A DNA stretch of 32,000 bases from an uncultured bacterium (GTDB lineage: Bacteria > Margulisbacteria > WOR-1 > CAVSGV01), in contig OY969425.1 in the NCBI GenBank assembly GCA_963699255.1, positions 1,470,001 through 1,502,000 of the forward strand. The letters are read 5' to 3'. The notes below the pieces were generated by a model. That model was not told the DNA's origin. It saw only the letters and a program-made list of their open reading frames with translations, and did not search any database. Position numbers and translations under genes: made by a program. Below, one piece after another: positions 18,450 through 32,000 of the stretch; positions within the stretch are counted from its first letter, which is position 1, and each line of letters starts with the position of its first letter.

Positions 18450-19067
18450 TTACATTTCATACTGGACGGCCATGGAGAACGTCTGGTATGAATCCGACGC
18501 CATAGTGTACAGCATCAGTTCCGCGAGCGCGCTCAGCTTTTTACTGAACTGATATTTCGCTCCGAATCCCCACATGCAATCGTTAGAGTTGGCTGATTTT
18601 GAACCGGTGAACTTGTTCGTGTTCTGCATGCCGTAAAGAGCGCCGTAGATCGTGAACTCATTCCTTAATGATCTGCTCGCGATCATGCCAATGCTGGTCG
18701 TGCCCTGGTTGATGTCTTTTCCTGAAATGGAATCATAACCGAGTATGGCAGCCAGATCCAACGGTGTGTTCCACAATGATTTTGGGATGGTGTACTTTCC
18801 CGCTATGCCGATCTCGGTTGCGCCTGTTCCGGAATAGGTCACCGATCCAACCTTGCCGACCATATCGATATCGTCGGTCACTCCATAAATGATTTTCGGA
18901 CCATATGCGGTGATGTTCTCATCAGACAGTTTTACAGGGGTTGAACTGTAATAGCCTTGAATGGCGAAATTATCCTTTCCCATGGAAGAAGGTACCAATA
19001 ATACCTCGGCGGAGCAGACGCTGAACAGCAAACCCGCGATCAAAACTGACAATAATGTTTTCTTCAT
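18450..19067 (-). CDS. putative small outer-membrane beta-barrel protein (paralog 2)
   Basis: 205-aa ORF with a signal peptide (MKKTLLSVLIAGLLFSVCSA) and a strong SD (aaggagga). It shares PLDLA, TIYG, G.G.KY and LAEL blocks with paralog 1. Confidence 0.5.
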   Translation of the reverse strand: MKKTLLSVLIAGLLFSVCSAEVLLVPSSMGKDNFAIQGYYSSTPVKLSDENITAYGPKIIYGVTDDIDMVGKVGSVTYSGTGATEIGIAGKYTIPKSLWNTPLDLAAILGYDSISGKDINQGTTSIGMIASRSLRNEFTIYGALYGMQNTNKFTGSKSANSNDCMWGFGAKYQFSKKLSALAELMLYTMASDSYQTFSMAVQYEM

Positions 19068-19160
19068 TTTTTATCCTCCTTGCGAGTTAATTCTACATAA
19101 ACCAATTTTTATGTCAACCCAAAACTACGAACAGCATAAATTCATGCTCAATTCAAAAGT

Positions 19161-19189
19161 TTGCAAGATACATTTTCTAATGATAATAT
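19161..19189 (+). promoter_or_regulatory. putative promoter TTGCAA-17 nt-TAATAT for mazG, ending 9 nt before the ATG
   Basis: Boxes and spacing read directly. No SD lies between the -10 box and the ATG at 19199. Confidence 0.45.
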
Positions 19190-19198
19190 TGCCTTTCT

Positions 19199-20092
19199 AT
19201 GTCAAAGCCCCGGAAAAAATTCGATGAACTTGTCAGGATCGTCCGCCGCCTCAGGGCCAGGAACGGATGTCCCTGGGACAGGGTGCAGACCCACGCTACG
19301 CTTAAACCGTACATGGTCGAAGAGGTCTATGAGGCCCTTGAGGCCATAGATCTCAAGGATCACAAAAAACTTGCCGAAGAACTCGGCGACATGCTTCTGC
19401 ATGTGGTCATGCAGGCGGAGATCGGGCGGGAGAAGAAAGAGTTCACGCTTGATGATGTCATCGATTCAATATCCGCAAAAATGATAAGGCGTCATCCCCA
19501 CGTTTTTTCAAATAAAAAGGTAAGATCGGTCGAAGAAGTCTGGCAGAAGTGGGAGGAGATCAAGGGGAAGGAAAAGGCGGGAAAAGGGGAAGAACATAAG
19601 GGAATATTGGAAAGCGTGCCTCAATCGCTGCCGGCGCTGTATCGGGCCGATAAGGTCCAGCGGAGGGCCGCAAGGGTGGGGTTTGACTGGAACAGCATCG
19701 CAGGAGCATGGAGAAAAGTTCACGAGGAAGAAAAAGAAGTGCAAACGCTCCTGCGAAAATCCAAAATCCAAAGCTCAAAATCCAAAATAAATCTCAAATC
19801 TAAAACTCCAAAAGCCAAACAAAAAGAGAGGATCAAAGAAGAATTAGGGGATTTACTATTTGCGATAGTCAATGTATCAAGAAAACTTGATATCGATGCC
19901 GAGGAAGCCCTTCAGGACGCAACTTCGAAATTCATGAGGCGGTTCAAAGGGATAGAGCTTCACGCCAGGAAGTCGGGGCGCCACATCAGCAAGCTGACCC
20001 TTCCGGAAATGGATAAGGTATGGGAACAGGTCAAAAAAGACGAGATGAGACCCGCCTGCGCCAAGGCTTCGGCGGGCAGGGATGGGAGATGA
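19199..20092 (+). CDS. mazG: nucleoside triphosphate pyrophosphohydrolase MazG (two-domain form)
   Basis: 297-aa ORF with GCPWD, EE.YE...A, EELGD.L and RRHPHVF in domain 1, and LPAL..A.K.Q...A.VGFDW, EELGDLLFAIVN and KF.RRF in domain 2. Confidence 0.9.
   Translation: MSKPRKKFDELVRIVRRLRARNGCPWDRVQTHATLKPYMVEEVYEALEAIDLKDHKKLAEELGDMLLHVVMQAEIGREKKEFTLDDVIDSISAKMIRRHPHVFSNKKVRSVEEVWQKWEEIKGKEKAGKGEEHKGILESVPQSLPALYRADKVQRRAARVGFDWNSIAGAWRKVHEEEKEVQTLLRKSKIQSSKSKINLKSKTPKAKQKERIKEELGDLLFAIVNVSRKLDIDAEEALQDATSKFMRRFKGIELHARKSGRHISKLTLPEMDKVWEQVKKDEMRPACAKASAGRDGR
19756..19825 (+). repeat. degenerate A-rich short-period repeat (aaaatcca / aaatctca type) in frame inside mazG
   Basis: It encodes RKSKIQSSKSKINLKSKTPKAKQKE, between the EE..E and EELGDLLF motifs of MazG domain 2. 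That interval looks clearly shorter in MazG proteins as I recall them. Confidence 0.7.
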
Positions 20093-20108
20093 AAGATGTG
20101 ACTTTTCT

Positions 20109-20140
20109 CGCATCTCACACTTCGCATCTCGCATCTCACG
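20109..20140. repeat. three GCATCTC(A) units in the mazG-ftsH intergenic region
   Basis: GCATCTC occurs at 20110, 20124 and 20131. Confidence 0.6.
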
Positions 20141-20173
20141 TTCTTTTCATACAATGTAAGCTCCAGTATTCTA

Positions 20174-20182
20174 TGTTATAAT
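20174..20182 (+). promoter_or_regulatory. extended -10 element TGtTATAAT upstream of ftsH
   Basis: Same 9-mer as at 10500-10508. It lies about 30 nt upstream of the ftsH ATG, with SD aaagga between them. Confidence 0.4.
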
Positions 20183-20211
20183 TACCCAAGTTATTAATAT
20201 TAATCGAAAGG

Positions 20212-20790
20212 ATGCCAATGAAAGACGCCTGGAAAAACCTGTTTTTTTACTTGCTGTTCCTGCTGATAATAGTGTCGCTTCTGGCGCCGTTCTTCGGAAA
20301 CCAGCCGAAAACACAGGAACTTTCCTTTACTGATTTTTTGAACCGCGTTGACCGCCGTGAGATATCTGAAGTGTCGGTCAATGGGGATGTTTTCACCGGA
20401 AAGCTTTCTACCGGCGCGCTTTTCAAGACACGGGCGCTCAATTATCCTGACCTGATCCCCACTTTACGGGGAAAAGGCGTTAACATCAAGGTTGAACAGC
20501 CTTCCGATTCAAGCTGGCTATGGAACCTTATAATACAGCTTGTGCTTCCGCTCCTTTTCTTTGCGGGACTCTGGTGGCTCCTTATGAGGCAGGCGGCAGG
20601 TTCCTCAAGCCAGGCGCTTTCATTCGGAAAGTCCCGCGCAAAGCCGACGCAGGCAAAGATAAAAATAACATTTGCGGATGTCGCGGGAGTGGATGAAGCA
20701 AAAGAAGAACTGAAAGAGATAGTCGAATTCCTAAAGACCCCCAGAAATTCCAGAAACTCGGGGCAAAGATCCCGAAGGGCCTTCTTTTAA
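20212..20790 (+). CDS. ftsH: ATP-dependent zinc metalloprotease FtsH, N-terminal part (gene interrupted by an apparent frameshift)
   Basis: Two TM helices flank a periplasmic domain, then [21 protein letters not shown]. The frame is lost at about 20733-20742. Confidence 0.9.
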
Positions 20791-22043
20791 TGGGTGCTCC
20801 GGGGACGGGAAAGACCCTTCTCGCAAGGGCGATCGCCGGGGAGGCGGGAGTGCCTTTCTTTTCGATATCCGGCTCCGATTTTGTTGAGATGTTCGTCGGC
20901 GTTGGGGCGTCCAGGGTGAGGGATCTGTTCACACAGGCAAAAAAGCAGACGCCCTGCATAATATTCATGGATGAGATAGACGCCGTCGGCCGCCACCGCG
21001 GAGCGGGACTCGGCGGGGGGCATGATGAAAGAGAACAGACGCTGAACCAGCTGCTGGTCGAGATGGACGGGTTCGATCCGAACACGAACATCATCGTGGT
21101 GGCGGCAACGAACAGGCCCGACATCCTTGATCCGGCGCTGCTCAGGCCGGGACGGTTCGACAGGCAGATAGTTCTGGACAAGCCCGACCTTAACGGAAGG
21201 CGCGAGATCTTGAAGATACACGCGAAAGGAAAACCTTTCGCAAAGGACATGGACCTGGATATTATCGCAAGAAGGACGCCGGGATTCACGGGGGCGGACC
21301 TTGAGAACGTGTTGAATGAAGCCGCTATCCTCGCCGCCAGGGCGGATAAAAAGCAGGTAACAATGAATGAGGCAAGCCAGGCTATCGACAGGGTCATCGC
21401 CGGTCCCGAAAAAAAGAGCAAAGTGATATCGGACAGGGAAAGAGAGATAGTCGCGTATCACGAAGTGGGACACGCGCTTCTCGCGAGACTTTTGCCGAAT
21501 GCCGATCCGGTGCATAAGATATCGATACTCCCCAGGGGCCTTGCCCTCGGCTATACCTTACAACTTCCCCTTGAGGATAAGTATCTGGTCACAAAAAGCC
21601 AGGCAATGGACCAGGTGACGGTGATGCTCGGAGGCCGCGTTTCCGAAGAGATGATATTCAACGAGCTGACCTCGGGTGCCCATAATGACCTTGAACACGC
21701 GACAGAAGTCGCAAAAAGAATGGTCTGCGAGTTCGGCATGAGCAGGCTGGGACCCAGGACTTTCGGCAAGAGGGACAGGCAGGTGTTCCTCGGACGGGAT
21801 ATCGGAGAGATGAAAGATTACGGCGGGGAAACAGCGAATGCGATCGATAAGGAAATAAGATACATTATAGATGTGTGCCAAACAAGAGCGAAGAAGATAC
21901 TCTCCGCTAACAGGAGCAGTCTTGTTGCGATCGCAAAGAAAATGAAAGAAGTTGAAAATCTCGAAGGCCAGGAACTGGAGAAAGTATTCAATGATCTGGG
22001 GCTTAAAGCCAAAAACGGCGGCACCGCCAAAAAAACAAAGTAA
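20790..22043 (+). CDS. ftsH: ATP-dependent zinc metalloprotease FtsH, AAA+ and protease domains
   Basis: Walker A GAPGTGKT, Walker [32 protein letters not shown] and zinc motif HEVGHAL are present. In this frame the sequence upstream of the ATG reads [20 protein letters not shown], the expected FtsH continuation. Confidence 0.92.
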
Positions 22044-22821
22044 ACCTGAAGAAAAACCGCAGGCCGAAGAAAAGATAATAGAATGCGTTCCAAACTTCAG
22101 CGTCGGGCATGACAGCGCCGTCATCCACAAGATAGTTGATTCGATCAAAGCGTCTTGCGTTGACGTTATCGACCAATCATACGACGAAGACCATAACAGG
22201 CTTGTTGTCACATTTATCGGTACGCCCGAGAAGGTCCTTAAAGCCGCGTACAGCTCCATAGAAACAGCATCCGGCTTGATCGACATCAATAAACAAATAG
22301 GGGTGCATCCGTTCATCGGGGTCGTTGACGTTGTTCCGTTCATCCCCCTTAAAGTCGCAAAGATGAACGATTGCAAAGATATCGCGAAGGCTTTGGGCAG
22401 GCAGGTCGCCGACAGCTTAATGATACCTGTTTTCTTATACGGCGAATCAGCGAGGAACGATAGGTTCAGGCATTTATACAATATCAGGCACGGCGGGCTT
22501 GATCATTTGAGGTCAGCTATAGCAACAAAAGATTTCAGACCAGACTTTGGCGAACCGAAGAATCCACCCGACCGCCGGAGCAGTTGCGATAGGCGCAAGG
22601 TATTTTCTTATAGCGTTCAACGTCAACCTGGATACCGACGATCTTCAGGCGGCGAAAGACATCGCGAAAAGGATAAGAGAAAAGGACGGAGGGCTTCCGG
22701 GAATAAGGGCTCTCGGGGTGCCGCTCAAATCAAAAGGCAAGGTCCAGGTCACCATAAACGTGACACATTACAAGAAGACTTCCCTGAAGGCTCTTATGGA
22801 CAGGGTAAAAAAAGAATGTAA
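21991..22821 (+). CDS. glutamate formiminotransferase-like protein, N-terminal part (homologous only to about 22560; apparent frameshift)
   Basis: [44 protein letters not shown] and RPDFGEP match formiminotransferase N-subdomain motifs. The only candidate start upstream of the homology in this frame that is not deep inside ftsH is the ATG at 21991, which overlaps the ftsH 3' end. Confidence 0.65.
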
Positions 22822-22954
22822 CGCAAAGAACGTTCCGATACTTAACACCGAAATTGTGGGGCTTGTTCCAAGGGACGCGACTTTTCCGGGCATGAAGGAA
22901 AACCTTATGCTGGATGACTTTGATGAAGGGAAGATACTGGAAACATACCTGTAA
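22547..22954 (+). CDS. glutamate formiminotransferase-like protein, C-terminal part
   Basis: [23 protein letters not shown]...[20 protein letters not shown] continues the formiminotransferase fold in a different frame. Confidence 0.65.
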   Translation: MANRRIHPTAGAVAIGARYFLIAFNVNLDTDDLQAAKDIAKRIREKDGGLPGIRALGVPLKSKGKVQVTINVTHYKKTSLKALMDRVKKECNAKNVPILNTEIVGLVPRDATFPGMKENLMLDDFDEGKILETYL

Positions 22955-22992
22955 AATGACCAATGAACAATGACACAATTAACAATTAAGGA
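22955..22992 (+). repeat. ACAAT/CCAAT short-period repeat leader upstream of valS, ending in the AAGGA ribosome-binding site
   Basis: acaatgacacaattaacaattaagga (22967-22992) differs from 831-856 (upstream of fmt) at one position. Confidence 0.6.
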
Positions 22993-23002
22993 ATAATATT
23001 AG

Positions 23003-25705
23003 ATGAGCGAAGAATTATCTAAAATATATGAGCCGAAAATCGTTGAGGAAAAATGGTATAAGATATGGGAAGAGAACGGTTATTTTGCTCCCGATGAATC
23101 CTTAAAAACCCCGCCGTTCGTCATCGTGATCCCGCCTCCGAACGTTACCGGTTCGCTTCACATGGGTCACGCGCTTGATAACACGATCCAGGATATCCTT
23201 ATCAGGTTCAACAGGATGAAGGGTATGAGGGCGCTGTGGGTACCCGGAACGGACCACGCCGGCATCGCGACGCAGAACGTGGTGGAGAAGGAACTGGCCA
23301 AGGAGAAAAAGAGAAAAGAGGATATCGGCAGGGATAAGTTCATTGAGATGGTCTGGAAATGGAAGGAGAAGTTTGGCGGCCAGATAACGCTGCAGCTGAG
23401 GCGGCTGGGCGCATCGTGCGATTGGAAGAGGGAGCGCTTCACGATGGATGCGGGTCTTTCCCGCGCTGTCAGAAAAGCTTTTGTTTCACTGTATAACGAC
23501 GGGCTCATTTACCGCGGAAAAAGGATAATCAACTGGTGCCCGAGATGCAAAACAGCAATCTCGGATATCGAAGTGGAATACACGGAAGAGAACGGCAAAC
23601 TCTGGCACCTGAAGTATCCTGTCGAGGGGTCGAATGAATTCGTTACTGTTGCCACCACAAGACCCGAGACGATGCTCGGAGATACTGCCGTTGCCGTCAA
23701 TCCATCGGATGCGAGATACAAACGTTTTATAGGCAAGATGCTTGTTCTTCCGCTTGTCGGAAGAAGGATACCTGTGATAAAGGACGACTTTGTCGATCCA
23801 ACTTTTGGGACCGGCGCGGTCAAGGTCACTCCCGCCCATGACCCGAATGACTATGAGATAGGGCTGCGGCACAATCTCCCCCAGATAATAATGATGCATC
23901 CCGACGGGAAGGCCCATGTCAGCCATTTCCCGAAAGAAGAACAAAAAGAGATCGCCTCATATGAGGGGGTCGACCGGTTCAAGCTGAGGGATATCATCGT
24001 GGCTGACCTTGAAAAGGGCGGATATCTGGAAAAGATCGAGGACTACAAGAACAAGATCGGCAGATGCTATCGATGCAAAACTCTCATCGAGCCTTATCTC
24101 TCAGACCAGTGGTTCGTCAGGATGAAAGACCTTGTCAGGCCGGCCATACAGGCCGTTGAAGACAAGAACATCCGGTACATTCCCGACCGCTGGACAAAGG
24201 TTTACTTAAACTGGATGGAGAACCACCGTGACTGGTGCATATCCAGACAGATATGGTGGGGGCACCGCATTCCCGCTTGGGAATGCAAATCCCAAATCCC
24301 AAATCCCAAATCCCAAACAAATCCCAATGACCAAATCCCAAATCCCAAAAAGGGCTGCGGAAACATCATCGTTTCGGAAGAAGCTCCGACAAAATGCCCG
24401 AAGTGCGGCGGAACGAATTTAGTCCAGGATCCGGATGTACTGGATACTTGGTTCTCATCGTCGCTCTGGCCGTTCTCGACCCTTGGCTGGCCCGAACAAA
24501 CCAAGGACCTAGAGACATATTATCCGACAACTGTTTTGGTTACCGGATATGACATTATCACTTTCTGGGTTTCAAAGATGATCGTTATGGGCCTGAAGTT
24601 CATGAAGAAAGAGCCTTTCTCAAAGATATTCATTCACGGCCTGATAAGGGATATTACGGGCAAGAAAATGAGCAAATCGATCGGCAACGTGATAGATCCT
24701 CTGAACGTCATAGACAGGGTAGGGGCTGACGCGCTCCGCTTCTCCCTGATATCGCTGATCTCCGGACAGGGGCAGGATATCAAGTTGTCCGAAGAAAAGA
24801 TCACCGAGGGCCGCAACTTCAGCAATAAGATATGGAACGCGGCAAGGTTCATATTGGGGAAGGTATCGGGTATCAGGCATCAGGGATCAGGGTTTGCGGA
24901 CAAATGGATATTGAGCAGATATAACAAGATGATCAATGAGATCACTGAAAAACTGGAGGAATTCGACCTTGGGGAAGCCGCGAGAAAGCTTTATGATTTC
25001 ATCTGGAGCGATTTCTGCGACTGGTACCTGGAAATGTCGAAGGTCGACGCATCCGAAGAGGTCCTGTTGGAAGTTTTTGAGGGCACAATGAGGCTGTTAC
25101 ATCCGTTCATGCCTTTCATCACGGAAGAAATATGGCAGAAGTTAGAGATCAGAGATAAGAGATCAGAGATTGGAAACGCGAAACATGATAAGACGATAAT
25201 GCTTTCCCACTGGCCGAAGGCGGACAAGTCCTTGATCAATGAGAACATCGAGGATGAAATGGCCGTTGTTAAAGAGATAGTCAGGACGATAAGGAACATC
25301 AGGGCCACCTTGAACATTCCGCATTCAAAGGAACTTACCGCGTATATTTCGACGGGAAAGAAGATCGGCGCTGACCAGGTGAAATACCTGACATCGCTCG
25401 CGAGGCTCGAGAAGCTGGATATATCTTCAAAAACAAGCACAAAGATAGAAGGATCAGCAACAGCTGTCCTTCCAGACATAACCATTCATATTCCGCTCAA
25501 GGGCATAATCGACCTGAACAAGGAAGTTGACCGGCTTAAGGAAAAGATCGTTAAACTTGATGAGGAGATCGATAAAGTAAGACAAAGATTATCGGCGAAC
25601 AATAACGTTCCCGAGGACGTCCTGGATGAGTGGAAGGGCAGGGAGCAGGAGTTCTTAAAGCAGAAAGAAACGCTTCAGGACCAGATCAAGTCTCTGACCG
25701 CGTAA
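23003..25705 (+). CDS. valS: valine--tRNA ligase
   Basis: 900-aa ORF with HIGH-type motif (PNVTGSLHMGHAL), TRPET, KMSKS, an editing domain and a C-terminal coiled coil. Confidence 0.95.
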   Translation: MSEELSKIYEPKIVEEKWYKIWEENGYFAPDESLKTPPFVIVIPPPNVTGSLHMGHALDNTIQDILIRFNRMKGMRALWVPGTDHAGIATQNVVEKELAKEKKRKEDIGRDKFIEMVWKWKEKFGGQITLQLRRLGASCDWKRERFTMDAGLSRAVRKAFVSLYNDGLIYRGKRIINWCPRCKTAISDIEVEYTEENGKLWHLKYPVEGSNEFVTVATTRPETMLGDTAVAVNPSDARYKRFIGKMLVLPLVGRRIPVIKDDFVDPTFGTGAVKVTPAHDPNDYEIGLRHNLPQIIMMHPDGKAHVSHFPKEEQKEIASYEGVDRFKLRDIIVADLEKGGYLEKIEDYKNKIGRCYRCKTLIEPYLSDQWFVRMKDLVRPAIQAVEDKNIRYIPDRWTKVYLNWMENHRDWCISRQIWWGHRIPAWECKSQIPNPKSQTNPNDQIPNPKKGCGNIIVSEEAPTKCPKCGGTNLVQDPDVLDTWFSSSLWPFSTLGWPEQTKDLETYYPTTVLVTGYDIITFWVSKMIVMGLKFMKKEPFSKIFIHGLIRDITGKKMSKSIGNVIDPLNVIDRVGADALRFSLISLISGQGQDIKLSEEKITEGRNFSNKIWNAARFILGKVSGIRHQGSGFADKWILSRYNKMINEITEKLEEFDLGEAARKLYDFIWSDFCDWYLEMSKVDASEEVLLEVFEGTMRLLHPFMPFITEEIWQKLEIRDKRSEIGNAKHDKTIMLSHWPKADKSLINENIEDEMAVVKEIVRTIRNIRATLNIPHSKELTAYISTGKKIGADQVKYLTSLARLEKLDISSKTSTKIEGSATAVLPDITIHIPLKGIIDLNKEVDRLKEKIVKLDEEIDKVRQRLSANNNVPEDVLDEWKGREQEFLKQKETLQDQIKSLTA
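24287..24352 (+). repeat. (AAATCCC)4 AAAC AAATCCC AATGACC (AAATCCC)2 tract in frame within valS
   Basis: Read directly. It encodes KSQIPNPKSQTNPNDQIPNPKK between Cys codons at 24284 and 24356. Confidence 0.9.
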
Positions 25706-26495
25706 TATCCCCAAGATCGCTAATTATCTTTTGAACCCTTTTGATATCCTTGGCCTTTCCGCTGTCATCAATGTCAATGAACACCCCGTTGAACAGCCCT
25801 GGGCCTTTATCTTCCGGCTCGAACCGCTCCGGAATGGACAAAAGGAACCTCTTGATTATCTGTTCCTTCTGCACGCCGATTATTGAATCGTACGCTCCAA
25901 CCATTCCCGCGTCCGTTATAAAGGCCGTGCCTTTAGGCAGGATCCTTTCATCCGATGTCTGGATGTGGGTGTGAGTGCCGATGACCACGGAAACTTTTCC
26001 GTCCATGTACCAGGCGAGCGCGTTCTTTTCGGATGTTGCCTCCCCGTGAAGATCGACCAGTATTATCGGTGTTTCGGCCTTCATTTTTGATGCGATGGAA
26101 TTCGCCGCCTGGAACGGGCAGTTCACGCAGGACATGAACACTCTTCCCAGCAGGTTCATGACGCCGTACTTGACCCCGTTCGCCGAGAAAACATCGAAGC
26201 CCTTTCCCGGAACGCCCTCAGGGTAATTCGCCGGCCGCACGAGGTTCGGGCACGAAGAAATGTCCGGAAGGAATTCTTTCCTGTCCCAGATATGATTCCC
26301 CGTTGTTATGACATCGATGCCCATGTTCATGAGCTCGTCGTAAACTTTTTTGGTTATCCCCACACCCGCGGCGGAATTCTCGCCGTTGGCTATGACAACA
26401 TCCGGCAGGAGCTCTTCCCTGAGTTTCGGGAGCAGGTTCCTTACGATGGCGCGTCCCGGCCGCCCAACAATATCCCCTATGAAAAGTATCTTCAT
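25686..26495 (-). CDS. ymdB: YmdB-like metallophosphoesterase (2',3'-cyclic-nucleotide phosphodiesterase family, TIGR00282-like)
   Basis: 269-aa ORF with [38 protein letters not shown] and GTHTH. It overlaps the rny stop by 4 nt. Confidence 0.85.
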
Positions 26496-28039
26496 TTTGC
26501 CGTGTCCGTCGCCCTTGTTTCCCTGATGACGGTCACTTTCACCTCTCCCGGATATTCAAGTTCTGCCTCGATCTTTCTTGCGACGTCATACGCCAGTTTT
26601 GCCGACATGACATCATCAAGCTTATCCGGCTGGACGACGATCCTTACTTCCCTTCCTGCCTGGATGGCGTAGCACTTTTCAACGCCTTCAAAGGACATGG
26701 CGACTTTTTCAAGATTCCCCAGCCTCTTGATGTAGGCTTCCAGAGTATCTCTTCTGGCGCCGGGCCTTGAAGCCGATATAGCGTCCGCGACCGCGACTAT
26801 CACGGCTTCCGCGGTCTTTGCTTCCACGTCCCCGTGGTGCGCGGCTATCGCATGGAGCACTTCATCTGATTCTCCGGCTTTTTGCGCGAACGTCACGCCC
26901 AGTTTTGTGTGGGTCCCTTCGGCGTCCTGGTCGATCGCCTTTCCTATGTCGTGAAGAAGACCGGCCCTTTTCGCCAGCTTGATGTTCACTCCGAGTTCTG
27001 CGGCGATCATTCCGGCGATCTTGGAAACTTCTATGGAGTGCTGGAGAACGTTCTGGCCGTAGCTTGTCCTGTACCTTAAGCGTCCCAGCATTTGTATCAG
27101 GACCGGCGGGAGCCCGTGGACGTCCGCTTCAAAAGTAGCGCGCTCGCCGTGTTCCCACATCGCGGCCTTCAGTTCTTCTTTTGACTTGTTGTACATTTCC
27201 TCTACCCTGGCCGGGTGGATCCTTCCGTCGGCAATGAGCTTCGTCAGCGTCAGCCTTGCCGTTTCCCTTCTCACGGGATCGAATCCAGAAATGATCACCG
27301 CCTCGGGAGTATCATCCACTATAAGGTCGACCCCCGTCAGAGTTTCAAAAGCCCTGATGTTCCTTCCTTCGCGCCCGATGATGCGTCCTTTCATTTCCTC
27401 GTTCGGAAGCTCCACGACCGTGACCGTTGATTCGACAACGTGGTCGACCGCGCAGCGCTGTATCGCGGTCGAGAGTATCTCCTTTGCCATCATTTCAGAA
27501 TCCTTTTTCAGCTGCTCTTGCTTTGCCTTTATCAGCAGTGCCGATTCGCGGTCCACATCCTTTTCAAGGTTCTTTAAGAGTGTCCTCATACCTTCCTCAC
27601 GGGTCAAGCCCGACACTTTTTCAAGTTCCTTCAGGTGCTTTATCCTGAGCTCTTCAAGCAGAGCCCTGACCTTTACCAGGTCATCCTCCGCGGATTTCAG
27701 CTTCCTTCTCGCTTCCTCTATGTTCTTCTCCCTTGCGTCAATGCTCTCTTCCCGCTGGAGCAGACGTTTCTCAAGGTTGAAGAGTTCCGCCTTCCTTTCT
27801 TTTGTTTCGCGATCGAAATCCTGCCTCTGCTTGAGCGCCTCGTCCTTTGCTTCGAGTATCGCTTCTCTTCTTTTTGTCTCGGCATCGCGCTTTGAATCTT
27901 CAATAATCCGCTTTGCCGTTTCCTGCGCGACGCGTATTTTCTGCTCCGCCATGTTCTTCCTGATGATCAGGTAGGCCACGAGAAGCGCAAAAACTATCAA
28001 CGCCAGCAGCAAACCGTATATAAAACCGATAAGATTCAT
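26492..28039 (-). CDS. rny: ribonuclease Y
   Basis: 515-aa ORF with an N-terminal TM helix, a long charged coiled coil, a KH domain ([12 protein letters not shown]) and an HD domain (LLHDIGKA...HH). SD gaggagg is present. Confidence 0.93.
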
Positions 28040-28060
28040 TTAACTCTACCTCCTCATTTA

Positions 28061-28158
28061 CCCGCCTCTGCCCGCCTTAGGCGGACTCTGGCGGGATTTT
28101 TCCCGTCCTTGACCGCTTAAGCGCGGACCTTGCCCGCCTAAGGACGGACTCTGGCGGG
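28061..28158. repeat. two copies of a 25-26-nt GC-rich palindrome-ended element, CCCGCCT(T)A(A)GG(A)CGGACTCTGGCGGG, plus an extra CCCGCC half-site
   Basis: Copy 1 is at 28071-28095 and copy 2 at 28133-28158, with a half-site at 28061-28066. Copy 2 contains the recA stop and the last 6 sense codons. Confidence 0.75.
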
Positions 28159-29184
28159 CTTCTTTGTTTCTATTTCTTCCTTTACTTCCTTTTTGACCGG
28201 ATTCGTCACGAACTTTCTGAGATCACTCTCTATCTTTTTGGCAAGATCCTTGTTCTCTTCCAGCGCTTTCTTGCTGTTCTCCCATCCCTGTCCGATCTTT
28301 TCTTCTTTATAAGTGAACCATGCTCCGCTTTTTTCTATTATCCCTGTCGCGATGGACGTGTCCAGGAGATCCGCGGATTTCGAGATCCCTTCGCCGTGTA
28401 TCAGGGTGAACAATGCTTCCCTGAACGGAGGGGCGACTTTGTTCTTCACTACCTTTACCTTCACTTTTGTGCCTATGATCCTGTCTGCCTCCTTTATCTT
28501 TTCACTTGCTCTCACCTCAAGCCGCACTGATGAATAGAACTTTAAAGCCCTTCCGCCGGGAGTGACCTCGGGATTGCCGAACATTATCCCGATCTTTTCC
28601 CTTAACTGGTTTATGAAGATCATAACTGTATTGCTTTTGCCTATGACAGCCGTCAGCTTCCTTAATGCTTTTGACATCAGCCTGGCCTGAAGACCCATCT
28701 GGAAATCGCCCATTTCACCTTCTATTTCCGCTTTGGGGACAAGGGCGGCGACCGAGTCTACGACTATTATGTCAACAGCTCCGGACCTGATGAGCGTCTC
28801 GGCGATCTCAAGCGCCTGTTCGCCGTAATCAGGCTGGGATATCAGAAGATTGTTGATATCAACTCCCAGCTTCTGAGCGTAGACAGGCGATAGTGCGTGT
28901 TCCGCATCAATGAAGGCGGCTATTCCGCCTTTCTTTTGGGCTTCCGCTATCGCCTGCAGCGACACCGTGGTTTTTCCTCCGCCCTCCGGACCGTATATTT
29001 CTATGATCCTTCCTTTCGGGAACCCTCCTACGCCAAGCGCGATGTCCAGAGAAAATACGCCCGAGGGTATCACGTCAATATCAAGCTTTGACGCTTTGTC
29101 CATCCTCATTATGGAACCTTTGCCGCAGCTTTTTTCTATCTGCGTTATTGCCACTTCCAATGCCTTCTTTTTTTCATCAGCCAT
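28138..29184 (-). CDS. recA: recombinase RecA
   Basis: 348-aa ORF with Walker [26 protein letters not shown] and the L1/L2 loop regions. SD aaggagg is present. Confidence 0.96.
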
Positions 29185-29198
29185 GTTCTATCTCCTCC

Positions 29199-29747
29199 TT
29201 ATAATCTTATCTGTTTCAGCTCTTCATAAACCGGTCCGCTTTTCATCAAGGTGCTCTTCATCAAGGAAATATCCTTTGCTTCAAAGCTGCCAAGATCCGT
29301 ATGTTCATTCTTCTCAATGAAGTGGGACAGCGCTTCGATATCAATGTTCTCCTTGATCCGGCCTATTGTCAGGTGGGGAGAAAACTCCCTTTCTTCTTCA
29401 CCATATCCTTGTTGAGAAAGTGCATCCTCGATCTTATTGGCCAATTCTTTTAATTTCCCCGCGCCTCCATTAATGCCTGACCAGATGACCCTGGGATGCT
29501 TTGGGTCTGGAAAGGCTCCAAATCCGCCGAAGCCGATCTTTATTGACCCGAAATCTTTTACCAGCTTCGCGACGGTATCTTCAAGACTCTCGATCTTTTC
29601 ATCTTCGACATTTCCCAGGAACTTAAGCGTAATATGCATGTTCTTCTTATTGATCCATTTTATCGGACCAAGCTTGAGGCCGCCGATGAGCTTTTCTATG
29701 TTGTCTTTTATTTCATCAGGGACCTCAACGGAAAAAAACACCCTCAC
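29199..29747 (-). CDS. thpR: RNA 2',3'-cyclic phosphodiesterase (2H family, ThpR/LigT)
   Basis: 182-aa ORF with the two H.T. motifs (HITLKF and HLTIGR) at the expected spacing. Confidence 0.85.
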   Translation of the reverse strand: MRVFFSVEVPDEIKDNIEKLIGGLKLGPIKWINKKNMHITLKFLGNVEDEKIESLEDTVAKLVKDFGSIKIGFGGFGAFPDPKHPRVIWSGINGGAGKLKELANKIEDALSQQGYGEEEREFSPHLTIGRIKENIDIEALSHFIEKNEHTDLGSFEAKDISLMKSTLMKSGPVYEELKQIRL

Positions 29748-29757
29748 GTTCCATGCC

Positions 29758-30309
29758 TCATATTTTATTCAATACCTCGTCGCCGCCCAGATGCAGCCAG
29801 AGAAGCCCAAGAGCGGCTGCCGCCGCCTTTTCCCTTATTTCCGATCTGCCGCCGGTAAGATGAAGTTCCTTGAAAACGGTCCCCTGATCGGATGCAAGAC
29901 CGATAAAAGTAAGTCCTATTGGCTTTGGCGGGGTCGTGCTGGCGGGCCCGGCTATCCCTGTCGCGGAAAGACCGATGTCCGCCCTGTATCTTTTTCTTAT
30001 CCCTTCCGCCATTGCTATCACGACTTCCTTGCTCACGGGGCTACCCTGCGCGATCGCGCTTGCCGGCACGCCCAGCTCCATGACCTTAATCCTGTTATGG
30101 TAGCAGACGATCCCGCCGATAAAAAAATCGGAACTTCCCGGCTGGCTCGTAAGCTTGCTTGATATGAGCCCTCCCGAAAGGGATTCGGCCACAGCGACCG
30201 TCTTTTTTGTCTTCTTCAGGAGCTCGGCCACTTCTATTTCCGTTGTTTTTCCTATGACGGAGAGGACCCTTGTAAAGAAATCCTCAAGCTTTACTTCCGA
30301 TTCACCCAT
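29758..30309 (-). CDS. CinA C-terminal domain protein / nicotinamide-nucleotide amidase (PncC-like)
   Basis: 183-aa ORF. The blocks TVAVAESLSGG, GG.V.Y, SATGIAGP and the neighbourhood pgsA-cinA-recA are typical of the CinA family. Only the C-terminal domain is present. Confidence 0.8.
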   Translation of the reverse strand: MGESEVKLEDFFTRVLSVIGKTTEIEVAELLKKTKKTVAVAESLSGGLISSKLTSQPGSSDFFIGGIVCYHNRIKVMELGVPASAIAQGSPVSKEVVIAMAEGIRKRYRADIGLSATGIAGPASTTPPKPIGLTFIGLASDQGTVFKELHLTGGRSEIREKAAAAALGLLWLHLGGDEVLNKI

Positions 30310-30817
30310 TTAGCGACTCCAAATTTTTAATGAAATATTCGATCCCTGAAACCACGGCCAGGATAACGCCGAGCCATAAGACCTGGTTCCCGTAGGGCAG
30401 GTTCAGGATCAGCATCGCGACCGCCACATCCAACAGCGCTGTTTTGTATTTCCCAAGCCTGTCGGCAGCAATTATCTTGCCGGACGAACTCGCGGCGAGC
30501 CGCAGTCCCGTAACCGCAAAATCCCTTACGATGATCACAATTACCGGTACGGACGACACCCATCTGATCTCCACCAGGCAAAGGAGAGCAGATATGACAA
30601 GTATTTTATCTGCAAGAGGGTCCATGAATTTACCCATCACAGTTTCCTGCTTGAGCCTTCTTGCAAGGTAGCCATCTATCGCGTCGGAAACCGCTACAGC
30701 GGCGAAGATCACTACAGCAATGATGCTACCATTGGGAATATTAGGCGAGAGCAGAACATAGACCAGGAGGGGGATAAATATTATTCTTAAAAAAGTTACC
30801 GAATTCGGCAGGTTCAA
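30302..30817 (-). CDS. pgsA: CDP-diacylglycerol--glycerol-3-phosphate 3-phosphatidyltransferase
   Basis: 171-aa polytopic ORF with the CDP-alcohol phosphatidyltransferase motif DAIDGYLAR...G...DPLADK. Confidence 0.9.
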   Translation of the reverse strand: MNLPNSVTFLRIIFIPLLVYVLLSPNIPNGSIIAVVIFAAVAVSDAIDGYLARRLKQETVMGKFMDPLADKILVISALLCLVEIRWVSSVPVIVIIVRDFAVTGLRLAASSSGKIIAADRLGKYKTALLDVAVAMLILNLPYGNQVLWLGVILAVVSGIEYFIKNLESLNG

Positions 30818-32000
30818 GTAACCAGGATACCGGAAAGATCATACGGGCCTGACCCCGTGATTTTTACCGAAACTATCTTTCCGTTCGGAACACATTTATT
30901 CAGCTTAACAACGCCGTCGATATCCGGCGCATCCATGTATGAGCGCCCGATACTTCCTTCTGCCAATACCTTGATAATTTTTCCTGCCATGTTCTTTAGA
31001 GACTTTGCAGAAATCTCGCGTTGCAAGCGCATTAACTTATGAAACCTTCGATCCTTTATCCGTTCGCCAATTTGATCCCCCATTTTGGCGGCGGGAGTAC
31101 CTGATTCCCTGCTGTACTTGAAAACCCCTAGTCTCTCAAACCTCTCTTCCCTGATAAATGCAAGTAATTTATTAAAATCGGAACCTGTTTCGCCTGGAAA
31201 ACCGACGATCACTGAAGTCCTTATCGCTATCCCCGGTATTTTCCTCCTTAGTTTTTTGATTACCCGTTTAAGTTGATCTGCGGATATCCTCCGCCTCATT
31301 AGCCGAAGAATCCTATCACAGGAATGCTGGATTGGCAAGTCCAGATATCGGCATATCTTGGGCTCTTTTGCCATCACTTCGATCAGCTCGTCCGTCACAT
31401 GGGCGGGATGCGCGTACATGATGCGGATCCACTTAAGACCCTTGATCCCGGCCAGTTTCCTGCATAATATATGTAAAGAGGGCTTTCCATAGATATCCGT
31501 GCCGTACATTGTCGTGTCCTGGGCGACCAGAATGGCCTCCTTCAATCCCTTTTTAACAAGGGCTTTGACCTCGCTGACTATCGATGGCATCGGGCGGCTC
31601 TGGTACTTTCCCCTCAGGCTGGGAACGATGCAGTAGGAGCAACGATTATTGCAGCCGTCGGCTATCTTAATATATGCGTAATATTTGGGGGTTGCTTTAA
31701 GCCTTGGCGTTTTATGGGTGAAAAGGCAGTGAGTTCCCTCAAGGAGCGAAACTCGGAACCTGCGACTAAACGTCGCGGTTCCGGAAGATAGTTTTTTGGA
31801 GCCGCGGCGTTCAGCCGCAGGCTCAGCACATCGGAGCTCGTTTAGTACATGGACTATCCTATCGATCTGGCCAGGGCCGACAATGGCGTCAACTTCCTCG
31901 AATTTATCGAACAGGTCGTTTTTGTCCCTTTTTGGGAGGCATCCGGCGACCACCAGGAACTTCAGCTTCGATGCCTTGGAACCTGCGACTGAAGTCGCGG
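30814..32000 (-). CDS. rimO: ribosomal protein S12 methylthiotransferase RimO (N-terminus outside the window)
   Basis: Radical-SAM motif GCNNRCSYC, an MTTase fold and a C-terminal TRAM domain with APDIDG are present. The frame stays open upstream of the GTG at 31953 to the window edge (..KLKFLVVAGCLPKR), so the true start lies beyond 32000. Confidence 0.85.
   Translation of the reverse strand, partial: ATSVAGSKASKLKFLVVAGCLPKRDKNDLFDKFEEVDAIVGPGQIDRIVHVLNELRCAEPAAERRGSKKLSSGTATFSRRFRVSLLEGTHCLFTHKTPRLKATPKYYAYIKIADGCNNRCSYCIVPSLRGKYQSRPMPSIVSEVKALVKKGLKEAILVAQDTTMYGTDIYGKPSLHILCRKLAGIKGLKWIRIMYAHPAHVTDELIEVMAKEPKICRYLDLPIQHSCDRILRLMRRRISADQLKRVIKKLRRKIPGIAIRTSVIVGFPGETGSDFNKLLAFIREERFERLGVFKYSRESGTPAAKMGDQIGERIKDRRFHKLMRLQREISAKSLKNMAGKIIKVLAEGSIGRSYMDAPDIDGVVKLNKCVPNGKIVSVKITGSGPYDLSGILVT
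31755..31782. repeat. bulged hairpin element H1 (GGAACCTGCGAC TAAAC GTCGCGGTTCC) inside rimO
   Basis: 11 bp of pairing with a single bulged T (31761), read directly. Confidence 0.8.
31798..31824. repeat. bulged hairpin element H2, same family as H1 in inverted orientation
   Basis: The reverse complement, GAGCCTGCGGC TGAAC GCCGCGGCTCC, aligns to H1. Two A-T pairs are replaced by G-C pairs. Confidence 0.8.
31978..32000. repeat. bulged hairpin element H3 (GGAACCTGCGAC TGAA GTCGCGG...), truncated by the window edge
   Basis: The left arm is identical to H1, and the right arm is identical as far as the window extends. Confidence 0.7.

Follow-up and report, generated by a model that had tools for sequence, protein, structure and literature searches.

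The 32,000-nt window analysed here belongs to the 1.77-Mb genome of an uncultured bacterium whose RecA has its nearest matches in WOR-1 and Riflemargulisbacteria. Four conserved genes in this window, mazG, valS, recA and rimO, carry repeat DNA in their reading frames, and every repeat that the initial annotation had listed for them was indeed present at its position. Five conserved genes had been counted there, but only these four were named. Gene calls are from a simple purpose-made caller, the edges of the arrays are fuzzy and the assembly carries 1-nt indel errors. In the following, G000 denotes the genome studied and G001, G002, G003, G005 and G006 denote relatives; one further strain, about 90% identical, is represented by contigs.

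mazG (19199-20092, plus strand) hosts an internal heptamer array and a 3′ end built from repeats. The array (19756-19819, plus strand), recognised by TRF and by comparison of repeat families, is of the AAAATCC type and consists of two 32-nt blocks (64 nt, period 7, TRF score 49-84); its predicted translation is a Lys/Ser-rich loop of about 21 residues. A related stretch lies at this site in G001, G003 and G005, genomes of the same family, and in the alignment it is missing from G006, most of the class and E. coli MazG (3CRA). The last 14 codons and the stop codon come from a C-terminal extension (20043-20092, plus strand) made of an H2 hairpin (20051-20080; a family of seven copies) with flanking GAGATG-type units, a tail found neither in any relative aligned nor in E. 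coli MazG. Directly past the stop codon, TRF and the sequence itself reveal a TCTCGCA array (20106-20137, no strand assigned) that mirrors the GAGATG-type units in inverted orientation and forms a heptamer-armed dyad with them.

valS (23003-25705, plus strand) hosts three heptamer arrays and is preceded by an intergenic heptamer element (22955-23001, plus strand; TRF) with AATGAAC/ACAATTA units, which starts directly where the upstream gene stops, ends in AAGGA and supplies the ribosome-binding site of valS. A copy with 86% identity is found at 823-865, and positions 22951-23002 (52 nt) are absent from the contigs of the 90%-identical strain. Array 1 (24286-24349, plus strand; TRF and ortholog alignment), the only one in the initial annotation, is of the AAATCCC type with two 32-nt blocks (64 nt, 80-90% matches, TRF score 86-107). 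It separates the two Cys codons of the CxC zinc knuckle, amounts to a net gain of 66 nt relative to G002, and its region (residues 431-449) is modelled as coil with a pLDDT below 50. Arrays 2 (AGGTATC type, 24861-24891, plus strand) and 3 (AGAGATC type, 25144-25170, plus strand) were detected by TRF and had not been listed before; they lie in hypervariable loops (residues 620-630 and 714-724) with a pLDDT below 50 at residues 622-627 and 719-728, respectively. In the 90%-identical strain array 2 shows small compensating indels and array 3 is shorter by 21 nt, that is three units or seven codons. Thermus ValRS is without the repeat segments in the alignment. The internal array and the tail of mazG and some of the valS loops are not simple recent insertions but belong to hypervariable loops whose content is old or was replaced.

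The 3′ end of recA (28138-29184, minus strand) is built from a cluster of H2-type GC hairpins with units of about 21 nt (28061-28158, 98 nt, minus strand), as seen in the ortholog alignment. Inserted just ahead of the old TAA stop of recA, the cluster provides the last six codons (PARVRP, 28141-28158) and a TAG stop (28138-28140), and it also forms the 5′ leader of rny. The gap between recA and rny is only 10-30 nt in G002, G003 and G005, and in the 90%-identical strain 77 nt of the cluster are replaced by 26 nt, making it 51 nt shorter.

rimO (30814 to beyond the window, minus strand), whose 5′ end is split by a 1-nt assembly indel, has three H1 hairpins in frame, placed by alignment and structure model; they are of another family than the hairpins at the ends of mazG and recA. 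Two of them, inverted and separated by a 15-nt spacer, form a REPIN-like doublet (31755-31826, minus strand) that encodes about 24 residues in the interdomain linker, predicted to be coil with a pLDDT below 50. The doublet is present in G001 and absent from G002, G003 and G005, the region is 66 nt shorter in the 90%-identical strain, and between G000 and G001 there are two compensatory changes in the stems and a diverged spacer. The third hairpin (31978-32000, minus strand, running on to 32005 past the window) encodes about 10 residues inserted into a loop, predicted to be coil with a pLDDT of about 61, and has no counterpart in any of the relatives aligned. In ValS and RimO, the five in-frame segments are all modelled as coil (pLDDT below 50-61) between well-modelled elements. 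The proposal that the insertions fall in linkers, loops and termini is in line with the structure models, which place them in predicted disordered loops, an interdomain linker and C-termini.

Repeat classes across the genome

Three classes of short repeats occur across the genome: heptamer blocks, the H1 hairpin and the H2 hairpin. The STRR-like blocks consist of about four tandem 7-nt units each and are found singly, paired into inverted dyads, or forming the arms of small cassettes with PF05635 genes. Seven is the commonest TRF period (247 rows), and 239 period-7 arrays were counted, 109 of them robust, with a median length of 31 nt and 77/109 spanning 26-36 nt. H1 is a 26-28-nt hairpin with a bulged T, present in 59 copies (up to four mismatches tolerated) and mostly as inverted doublets, of which there are at least 15 F-R pairs with spacers of 11-29 nt. 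H2 is a GC-rich hairpin of 30 nt with seven copies in the genome, often nested in heptamer units; H2-like hairpins are found inside heptamer arrays and inside one REP loop. Chance is excluded, since no match to the hairpin pattern is expected (100 shuffles of the window) and the hairpin 12-mers occur 19-22 times in the genome compared to about 0.2 expected. Besides mazG, valS, recA and rimO, at least 20 other conserved genes contain repeat DNA in frame, which bears out the earlier view of dispersed families that enter conserved genes without breaking them.

Could the in-gene arrays have arisen in place by slippage alone, like microsatellites, without ever being inserted as units? The difference of exactly three units in valS array 3 would fit, as would the imperfection of the arrays, their varying length between relatives and a loop length that is variable across the whole class. 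However, the unit families are few, and they and even 16-mers recur at unrelated loci, block length is narrowly spread around 31 nt, the whole 52-nt element upstream of valS is present or absent between close strains, and TsaD holds a complete heptamer dyad in frame with both arms. Slippage would also leave the H1 and H2 hairpins unexplained, and we consider it improbable as the sole origin.

The initial annotation had described the repeats as colonising coding sequences. As a preference this does not hold: all three classes are mainly intergenic. Of the robust arrays, 63 are intergenic, 24 lie at gene boundaries and 22 in genes, compared to 8, 6 and 95 expected, and the depletion in genes (20% versus 87% expected by chance) has a binomial p of about 5e-57. 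Among all 239 arrays 130 are intergenic, with 19 expected, and only about 12/59 H1 hairpins are inside genes, about 80% being outside.

The copies that are found in genes are a filtered subset with an open frame, an A-rich, hydrophilic sense strand and a location in a predicted disordered loop, linker or C-terminus. Sense strand and A-rich strand coincide in 19/22 in-gene arrays, but in only 21/49 arrays between co-directional genes (Fisher p = 7e-4). Peptides of in-gene arrays have a mean hydropathy of −1.46 in the sense and +0.84 in the antisense reading, and the latter hits stop codons in 13/19. AACAATT, the most common unit, contains stop codons whichever strand is read and hardly occurs in genes. 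Twenty robust arrays extend over a 3′ end of a gene, versus seven over a 5′ end.

The H1 hairpin and the Y1 transposase gene that it flanks

H1 is a REP/REPIN family with a Y1 transposase gene that is flanked by inverted copies. Its stems covary (CG/AT 39:20 and AT/GC 52:7, all paired), the inner-stem pairs stay paired in 57-59 of the 59 copies and the bulged T is seen in 52/59. The genome has one PF01797 match (1290785-1291165), with an HUH motif, and H1 hairpins flank it in inverted orientation (1290680-1290705 and 1291176-1291201); this arrangement suggests that the Y1 transposase moves H1. Assignment of the enzyme to the curated RAYT clade was rejected, since it reaches 50.4 bits with the model NF047646 (cut-off 80); it scores as IS200-type, passing the model NF033573 with 81.6 bits (cut-off 55). 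The flanks of 26 H1 copies revealed no conserved target motif or tetranucleotide, and CGTC is found in H1 only inside some loop-stem junctions.

Comparison with relatives

In ortholog alignments of valS, rimO, mazG, recA, TGT, a MiaB-like enzyme, a class-III aminotransferase, TsaD and ProRS, the sites of sister genera are empty or have other repeats. The segments could, as the initial annotation had considered, be ancestral protein sequence, or else belong to decaying pseudogenes or assembly artefacts. Indeed, 1-nt assembly indels split ftsH, a formiminotransferase gene, the 5′ end of rimO and probably ileS, and the internal stretch of mazG is common to four genera. However, no repeat interrupts its reading frame, and the sequence to either side matches Pfam families or orthologs. 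Independent metagenome contigs have one base more at the ftsH site and one base less at the formiminotransferase site, so that these frameshifts look like assembly errors and not like gene decay. A 7-nt DNA periodicity of 80-90% is not expected of old protein loops, and the segments are absent from distant orthologs. Since they are absent or differently filled in sister genera, the 90%-identical strain, E. coli MazG and Thermus ValRS, they are not ancestral protein sequence. Within the limits that fuzzy array edges and 1-nt indels set on judging length modulo 3, both of the checks named in the initial annotation turned out in favour of its interpretation. The alignments have largely refuted the idea that the insertions are not real, and we regard it as very improbable.

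Discussion

Starting from the observed repeat families, their depletion in genes, the orientation filter, the presence and absence in relatives and the location in loops, we favour, with a probability of about 0.7, the reading that three repeat families spread or turn over fast in this genome and that the in-gene copies are survivors of selection, a tolerated decoration. New copies would land or arise anywhere in the genome, H1 being moved by the product of the one Y1 (HUH) transposase gene that lies between two of its copies, and selection would then purge nearly all copies in genes. A copy would survive if the added length keeps the frame or the repeat brings a stop codon at the 3′ end of the gene, if its sense strand is free of stops and encodes a hydrophilic peptide, and if it lies in a surface loop, linker or C-terminus that tolerates a disordered segment. 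The surviving segments would be translated and would probably be a neutral, or almost neutral, decoration.

What is new is the turnover: neighbouring genera fill the same loops of core proteins with different heptamer families. The ProRS loop has the GAGATGC type in G000 and the AAATCCG type in G005 at 89% protein identity, and the loops of ProRS, TsaD, TGT and the MiaB-like enzyme hold another repeat family in each genus. At the zinc-knuckle site of valS array 1, 12/30 relatives have arrays of other units between the Cys codons, with at least six state changes on the ValS tree. The doublets of rimO and of the MiaB-like gene are found in G000 and the more distant G001 only, and are missing in closer relatives. 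More generally, repeats recur at identical positions within loops in many lineages, in some cases with equal length but from another unit family, and ProRS shows this most clearly.

This recurrence may also point to a renewal that is directed to sites, in which blocks or doublets are rewritten or exchanged where a repeat or target motif is already present, the same loops are re-colonised in parallel across genera and selection on the DNA or RNA maintains the hairpins. Such renewal could proceed by gene conversion, by a switch of template from one array to another or by Y1 transposition into specific targets. Two valS genes that are only 68% identical share an identical stretch of 43 nt containing the array, which hints at constraint or recent exchange and not at neutrality; the compensatory stem changes in the orthologous rimO doublets and the H2-like hairpins nested in heptamer arrays and a REP loop would fit as well. 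On the other hand, no conserved target motif is visible beside the H1 copies and no reverse transcriptase was found in the genome. Since the REP pool as a whole shows stem covariation, independent insertions of different variants would give the same picture. Very few permissive sites per protein would also give recurrence, and only if such sites are very few does random insertion with a filter account for it. The restriction of the rimO and MiaB-like doublets to G000 and G001 requires several precise losses or parallel gains; IS200/IS605-type excision is precise, which makes several independent losses of an old insertion plausible. All in all, site-directed renewal appears possible but rather unlikely.

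A bolder form of this idea, which we rate as unlikely, is that a site-directed templated process rewrites blocks and doublets again and again at a small set of codon positions in core proteins, exchanging a limited vocabulary of units between loci, with the hairpins selected in the coding sequence. Switching of templates from array to array, or a target-specific single-strand transposition with precise excision, could bring this about, and candidate sites are the position between the ValRS Cys codons, one loop each of ProRS, TsaD and TGT and the linkers of the two methylthiotransferases. If true, templated rewriting would act on protein loops and the segments would be more than tolerated junk.

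Survival of tolerated copies, the reading that we prefer, has precedents. The RPEs are in frame in genes of R. conorii (reviewed in PMC10969869; cited in PMC3733652), and the likeness to RPEs drawn in the initial annotation is apt as an analogy: dispersed palindromes occur in unrelated conserved genes that are apparently functional, the frame is kept and the peptide lies at tolerated surface sites. It does not extend to family membership, which was rejected: the elements have 26-75 nt and are read in different frames, the RecA is nearest to WOR-1 / Riflemargulisbacteria, and H1 is an ordinary REP/REPIN family accompanied by a Y1 transposase. RPEs have about 100-150 bp, are specific to Rickettsia and encode a conserved peptide in each family, whereas here hairpins of 26-30 nt, doublets of 70 nt or heptamer arrays of 28-66 nt are found, mostly intergenic, in a free-living genome of the Margulisbacteria type.

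In several species, REP singles and dimers are known to encode 20-30 residues within genes for tRNA synthetase, repair and other functions (PMC3733652), and therefore the in-frame behaviour of REPs is not new in itself. Like REP/REPIN-RAYT systems (PMC3116915; PMC3733652), H1 is a bulged, imperfect palindrome with dozens of copies, mostly between genes, that forms inverted doublets and flanks a single-copy Y1 gene. It differs in a transposase that passes the IS200 and not the RAYT model, in having only about 59 copies, and in doublets within two radical-SAM methylthiotransferases at linker sites common to two genera; the GTAG/CGTC tag at the palindrome end (PMC3733652) is not evident in the flanks of 26 H1 copies. 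As far as found, Margulisbacteria are a new lineage for a system of this type.

Bacterial MITEs that make in-frame fusions include Correia, ERIC, Nezha and cyanobacterial MITEs (PMC10969869). The elements described here are likewise small and non-autonomous, with inverted arms, and are occasionally located in genes and translated; the TsaD dyad looks like a cassette that has both arms but no cargo. The usual terminal inverted repeats and target-site duplications were not seen, however, and the arms are low-complexity heptamer runs whose cargo, if any, is a PF05635 four-helix-bundle gene and not a transposase. Phase-variable contingency loci were rejected as well: the hosts are essential housekeeping genes, and the sole strain difference seen, 21 nt, keeps the frame.

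STRR sequences (STRR1-3) are known from heterocystous cyanobacteria, whereas the organism studied here is not a cyanobacterium; Margulisbacteria are the non-photosynthetic sister lineage of cyanobacteria. The AATGACC unit is presumably the STRR2 unit TTGGTCA on the other strand. Of the TAACTGA repeats of Beggiatoaceae a minority is in or overlaps ORFs, mostly at protein ends, and orientation decides whether they can be translated (PMC4679880). A common trait is the dispersal of tandem 7-nt units over numerous loci, predominantly intergenic and frequently directly at a stop or start codon, although TAACTGA is not among the 40 commonest canonical units of the genome. In contrast to these systems there are many unit families instead of one, a fixed block size of about four units, different families in the same loop of sister genera, and arrays deep in core enzymes (the ValRS zinc knuckle, TGT, ProRS, TsaD, the MiaB-like enzyme and the class-III aminotransferase).

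For annotation, the repeats explain odd low-complexity loops and tails (KSQIPNP-, EMRDARC- and AKASAGR-like) in proteins from metagenome-assembled genomes, and caution is advised, since gene starts and ends are often supplied by repeats here. In-frame colonisation by repeats, best known from the RPEs of Rickettsia and a few REP-rich Proteobacteria, is extended to Margulisbacteria and likewise to STRR-like heptamer blocks. The genome offers material on how heptamers and REPs move, including their links to a Y1 transposase and to PF05635 cassettes. The loops of ValRS, ProRS, TsaD, TGT and the two methylthiotransferases, empty, filled or differently filled in neighbours, are a natural experiment in essential enzymes and a direct map of permissive sites.

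Results

The genome that holds the window (G000) is a single contig of 1.77 Mb with 47.5% G+C; the nearest named records to its RecA are from candidate division WOR-1 (69%), followed by Riflemargulisbacteria (66%). The gene set, obtained with a simple hexamer-based caller, comprises 1592 genes at 90.5% coding. Pfam identified mazG, ftsH (split), a formiminotransferase gene (split), valS, ymdB, rny, recA, ligT, cinA, a CDP-alcohol phosphatidyltransferase gene and rimO in the flagged 12 kb. An Rfam scan of window positions 19000–32000 gave zero family matches.

The initial annotation had placed short or palindromic repeats in frame in mazG, valS, recA and rimO, and every one of them was found (window coordinates unless marked as genome). 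mazG contains an internal period-7 array of 64 nt (19756–19819), and its C-terminal tail of 14 residues is encoded by a 30-nt GC hairpin (20051–20080) set within GAGATG-type units, whose inverted partner array (20106–20137) lies directly past the stop codon. valS carries an AAATCCC-type array of 64 nt at its zinc knuckle (24286–24349) and additional arrays at 24861–24891 and 25144–25170; the 64-nt arrays of valS and mazG each consist of two 32-nt blocks. A 98-nt GC-hairpin cluster (28061–28158), with units of about 21 nt that are related to the 30-nt GC hairpin, supplies the final six codons of recA (PARVRP) and its stop. rimO harbors a hairpin doublet (31755–31826) and a single hairpin (31978–32005), both in frame. 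The chance expectation of the hairpin pattern in shuffled sequence was none.

Contigs of a related strain, about 90% identical, were available from two freshwater-sediment and peat studies; they break at the first valS array. None of the public runs listed as carrying the sequence was RNA, and the best DNA runs had no more than 0.18 of the words sampled in common with it. The related strain lacks the 52-nt array element that separates the stop of the formiminotransferase gene from the start of valS, its third valS array is shorter by 21 nt (three units), and 26 nt stand in place of 77 nt of the recA cluster. Around the rimO doublet it has 46 nt instead of 112 nt, a difference of 22 codons that equals the gap in the relative G002. 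Heptamer units followed by AAGGA and a spacer make up a dispersed element, about 43 nt long, that occurs at 22955–23001 and 823–865; it spans exactly the distance from a stop codon to the next start and provides the ribosome-binding site. Of these copies, the one ahead of valS is missing in the related strain.

The same contigs bear on the split genes. ftsH (20212–22043) is present as two ORFs with a break near 20737 in a C-run, and since the related contigs have one extra base there, the split probably reflects faulty assembly rather than a pseudogene. The formiminotransferase gene (FTCD_N plus FTCD; 21952–22954) has a frameshift near 22561 and perhaps another near 22276, and the related contigs lack one base at 22561. 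Because of these differences of +1 and −1 base, both frameshifts look like homopolymer errors. The 5′ end of rimO, just outside the window (genome 1502130–1502230; loci L031/L033), has one extra T and about 25 first codons off-frame, including that of the first cluster cysteine; the remainder is intact and has 83% identity to G002. This is probably an error of the same kind.

Period 7 is the top tandem period of the genome, accounting for 247 TRF rows that fall into 104 canonical units; the leading families are AACAATT, GAGATG-type, AAATGAC and AAATCC-type. A block of roughly four units is the typical element, since 77 of the 109 robust arrays span 26–36 nt (median 31 nt). Inverted heptamer arrays from these families lie on both sides of six to seven of the ten PF05635 genes that the genome encodes. 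A reverse transcriptase (PF00078), a candidate writer of such arrays, had no match in the genome. The top over-represented genomic 12-mer (50 copies) was considered as part of the repeat system and rejected: its copies code for a GGGI(Y) motif of giant surface repeat proteins (1000–4800 residues) whose genes lie in a row (genome 565000–590000). A 17-mer is present 12 times at irregular spacing across 13 kb (genome 1245285–1258592) and may be a CRISPR-like or coding repeat.

The hairpins of rimO belong to a family, H1, that has two stems of 5–6 bp with a bulged T and is present in 59 copies when up to 4 mismatches are allowed; many of these are paired as inverted doublets with spacers of 11–29 nt. 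The inner stem covaries across copies (CG/AT 39:20; AT/GC 52:7) with pairing kept. The genome encodes exactly one Y1 transposase (PF01797, HVH motif), whose protein scores above the cut-off of the IS200 model and below that of the curated RAYT model and is alignable to structures of IS200/IS605 transposases. This sole Y1 gene has inverted H1 hairpins on both flanks (genome 1290680–1291201; L143/L184). The copies, the stem covariation and the location of the Y1 gene between inverted hairpins therefore identify H1 as a family of REP/REPIN type accompanied by a RAYT-like gene. Divergent Y1 genes (40–47% identity), one to three each, are present in half of the 30 relatives; a simple scan for flanking hairpins at these genes gave nothing usable. 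The 30-nt GC hairpin, H2, has seven copies, typically nested within GAGATG-type units. Four are in genes, two of them in C-terminal tails, one being that of mazG, and two internal.

Conserved in-frame hosts beyond the window, as identified by Pfam, are ThiE-ThiD2, PBP, LigA, a class-III aminotransferase, an alpha/beta hydrolase, ProRS, GlyQ, a GltD-like protein, TsaD, MutL, TGT, DapF, RsmH, IleRS, DinB and a second MiaB-like methylthiotransferase. The LigA arrays have TRF scores of 34–42 and little or zero length change against relatives, and may partly be due to chance. ileS (genome 1736704–1739365) is apparently split into a frame of 681 residues and one of 263 residues; the latter encodes the anticodon-binding and zinc-finger domains and contains an in-frame AAATCC-type array.

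Orthologs were aligned from 30 relatives of the same class. The zinc knuckle of ValS is a plain CxC in most relatives, but in 12 of the 30 these two Cys codons are separated by a near-perfect array built from other units, with a net gain of 30 to 72 nt. Since array edges given by TRF are fuzzy and the assembly has 1-nt indels, insertion lengths were taken from orthologs in place of the comparison of length modulo 3 inside and outside genes suggested in the initial annotation; lengths obtained in this way are necessarily multiples of three. Presence and absence of the array on the ValS tree require at least six state changes and are patchy even inside the family. Thermus ValRS (1GAX) is shorter at this site. 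The ValS proteins L005 (G025) and L015 (G012), from one genus with branch lengths of about 0.08, differ drastically here: in one the four-Cys knuckle is complete and carries a heptamer-plus-hairpin insert, whereas the other lacks cysteines altogether. A Cys-less knuckle is common to four genomes of the class.

The internal stretch of mazG is found in decayed form in four genera of the family and is missing elsewhere, the tail is found in G000 only, and E. coli MazG (3CRA) is without either segment. The recA–rny gap in three sister genera is only 10–30 nt, and the hairpin cluster of G000 is placed exactly ahead of the old TAA stop. The single hairpin of rimO is likewise present in G000 only; the doublet is missing in G002, G003 and G005 and present in the more distant G001. 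For TGT, the MiaB-like enzyme, the aminotransferase, TsaD and ProRS, some sister genera have an empty loop and others a loop filled with different repeats. The ProRS loop holds a GAGATGC-type array in G000, AAATCCG-type in G005 (89% protein identity), GGGCCAG-type in G001 and AAAATCC-type in G002; in TsaD, a complete heptamer dyad is translated with both arms. The MiaB-like gene of G001 (L161) has a 68-nt insertion that separates the two hairpins of its REP doublet, still in frame, and an H2-like GC hairpin nested, likewise in frame, within the second REP loop. To judge from these alignments, in which sites are empty or differently filled in sister genera and E. coli MazG lacks the segments, the repeat segments are insertions and not ancestral protein sequence.

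The notion that repeats colonise coding sequence was borne out as to their presence in frame within conserved genes, but not as a preference for coding sequence. Robust arrays were intergenic in 63, at gene boundaries in 24 and in genes in 22 cases, with 8, 6 and 95 expected at random, and only about 12 of the 59 H1 copies are inside genes. The A-rich strand is the sense strand in 19 of the 22 in-gene arrays, compared with 21 versus 28, and hence no bias, for arrays between co-directional genes (Fisher p = 7e-4). Peptides encoded by the sense strand of in-gene arrays are hydrophilic (mean hydropathy −1.46); the opposite reading is hydrophobic (+0.84) and has stop codons in 13 of 19. Units of the most frequent family, AACAATT, contain stops whichever strand is read, and this family is near-absent within genes. 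Overlap with the 3′ end of a gene is seen for 20 robust arrays, and there the stop codon is often array-derived, in parallel to recA and mazG. In-gene copies are thus a filtered subset of repeats that avoid genes.

Placement in loops, linkers or termini held where it was tested, in AlphaFold models of RimO and ValS built on alignments of relatives, because the repeat-coded residues are modelled as coil or linker. In RimO (mean pLDDT 86), residues 47–59 encoded by the single REP fall in the coil that joins a helix to a strand, and residues 107–131 encoded by the doublet form a linker preceding the radical-SAM core with pLDDT <50. In ValS (mean pLDDT 77), the array-coded residues 429–451, 620–630 and 714–724 are all coil with pLDDT <50, and well-modelled elements border all three stretches.

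Discussion

The best-supported reading is that of repeats with fast turnover under a strong selective filter. Copies inside genes would persist if the reading frame is kept or a stop supplied, if the sense strand is stop-free and hydrophilic, and if the site is a disordered one at the surface. IS200/IS605-family enzymes excise precisely. If the Y1 transposase moves H1, as the REP-RAYT architecture suggests, in-frame copies of H1 would be reversible, and this could account for their patchy distribution.

Some observations leave room for site-directed renewal of the repeats, or for a constraint on the hairpins. Identical codon positions hold different repeats in different genera, and the two REP doublets are common to G000 and G001 only. 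The orthologous rimO doublets have two compensatory stem changes beside a diverged spacer. The valS genes L014 (G021) and L018 (G022) have 68% DNA identity, yet share an identical stretch of 43 nt that spans the whole AAATCCG/T array. We consider such an explanation rather unlikely and favor fast turnover combined with selective filtering.

Rickettsia palindromic elements are known to be in frame (reviewed in PMC10969869). The RPE-like interpretation of the initial annotation applies in part: the elements of G000 are in frame at loops and linkers, but they differ from RPEs in size, sequence and host and are not members of that family. H1 fits the definition of REPINs and their RAYTs (PMC3116915) except for the curated RAYT score, and intragenic REP singles and dimers were described in several species, including in tRNA synthetase and repair genes (PMC3733652). 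The heptamer blocks are of the STRR kind, and heptamer repeats overlap ORF ends in Beggiatoaceae (PMC4679880). What appears to be new is the lineage, the depth to which heptamer blocks have penetrated core enzymes, and the swap of one unit family for another at the same loops at the level of genera.
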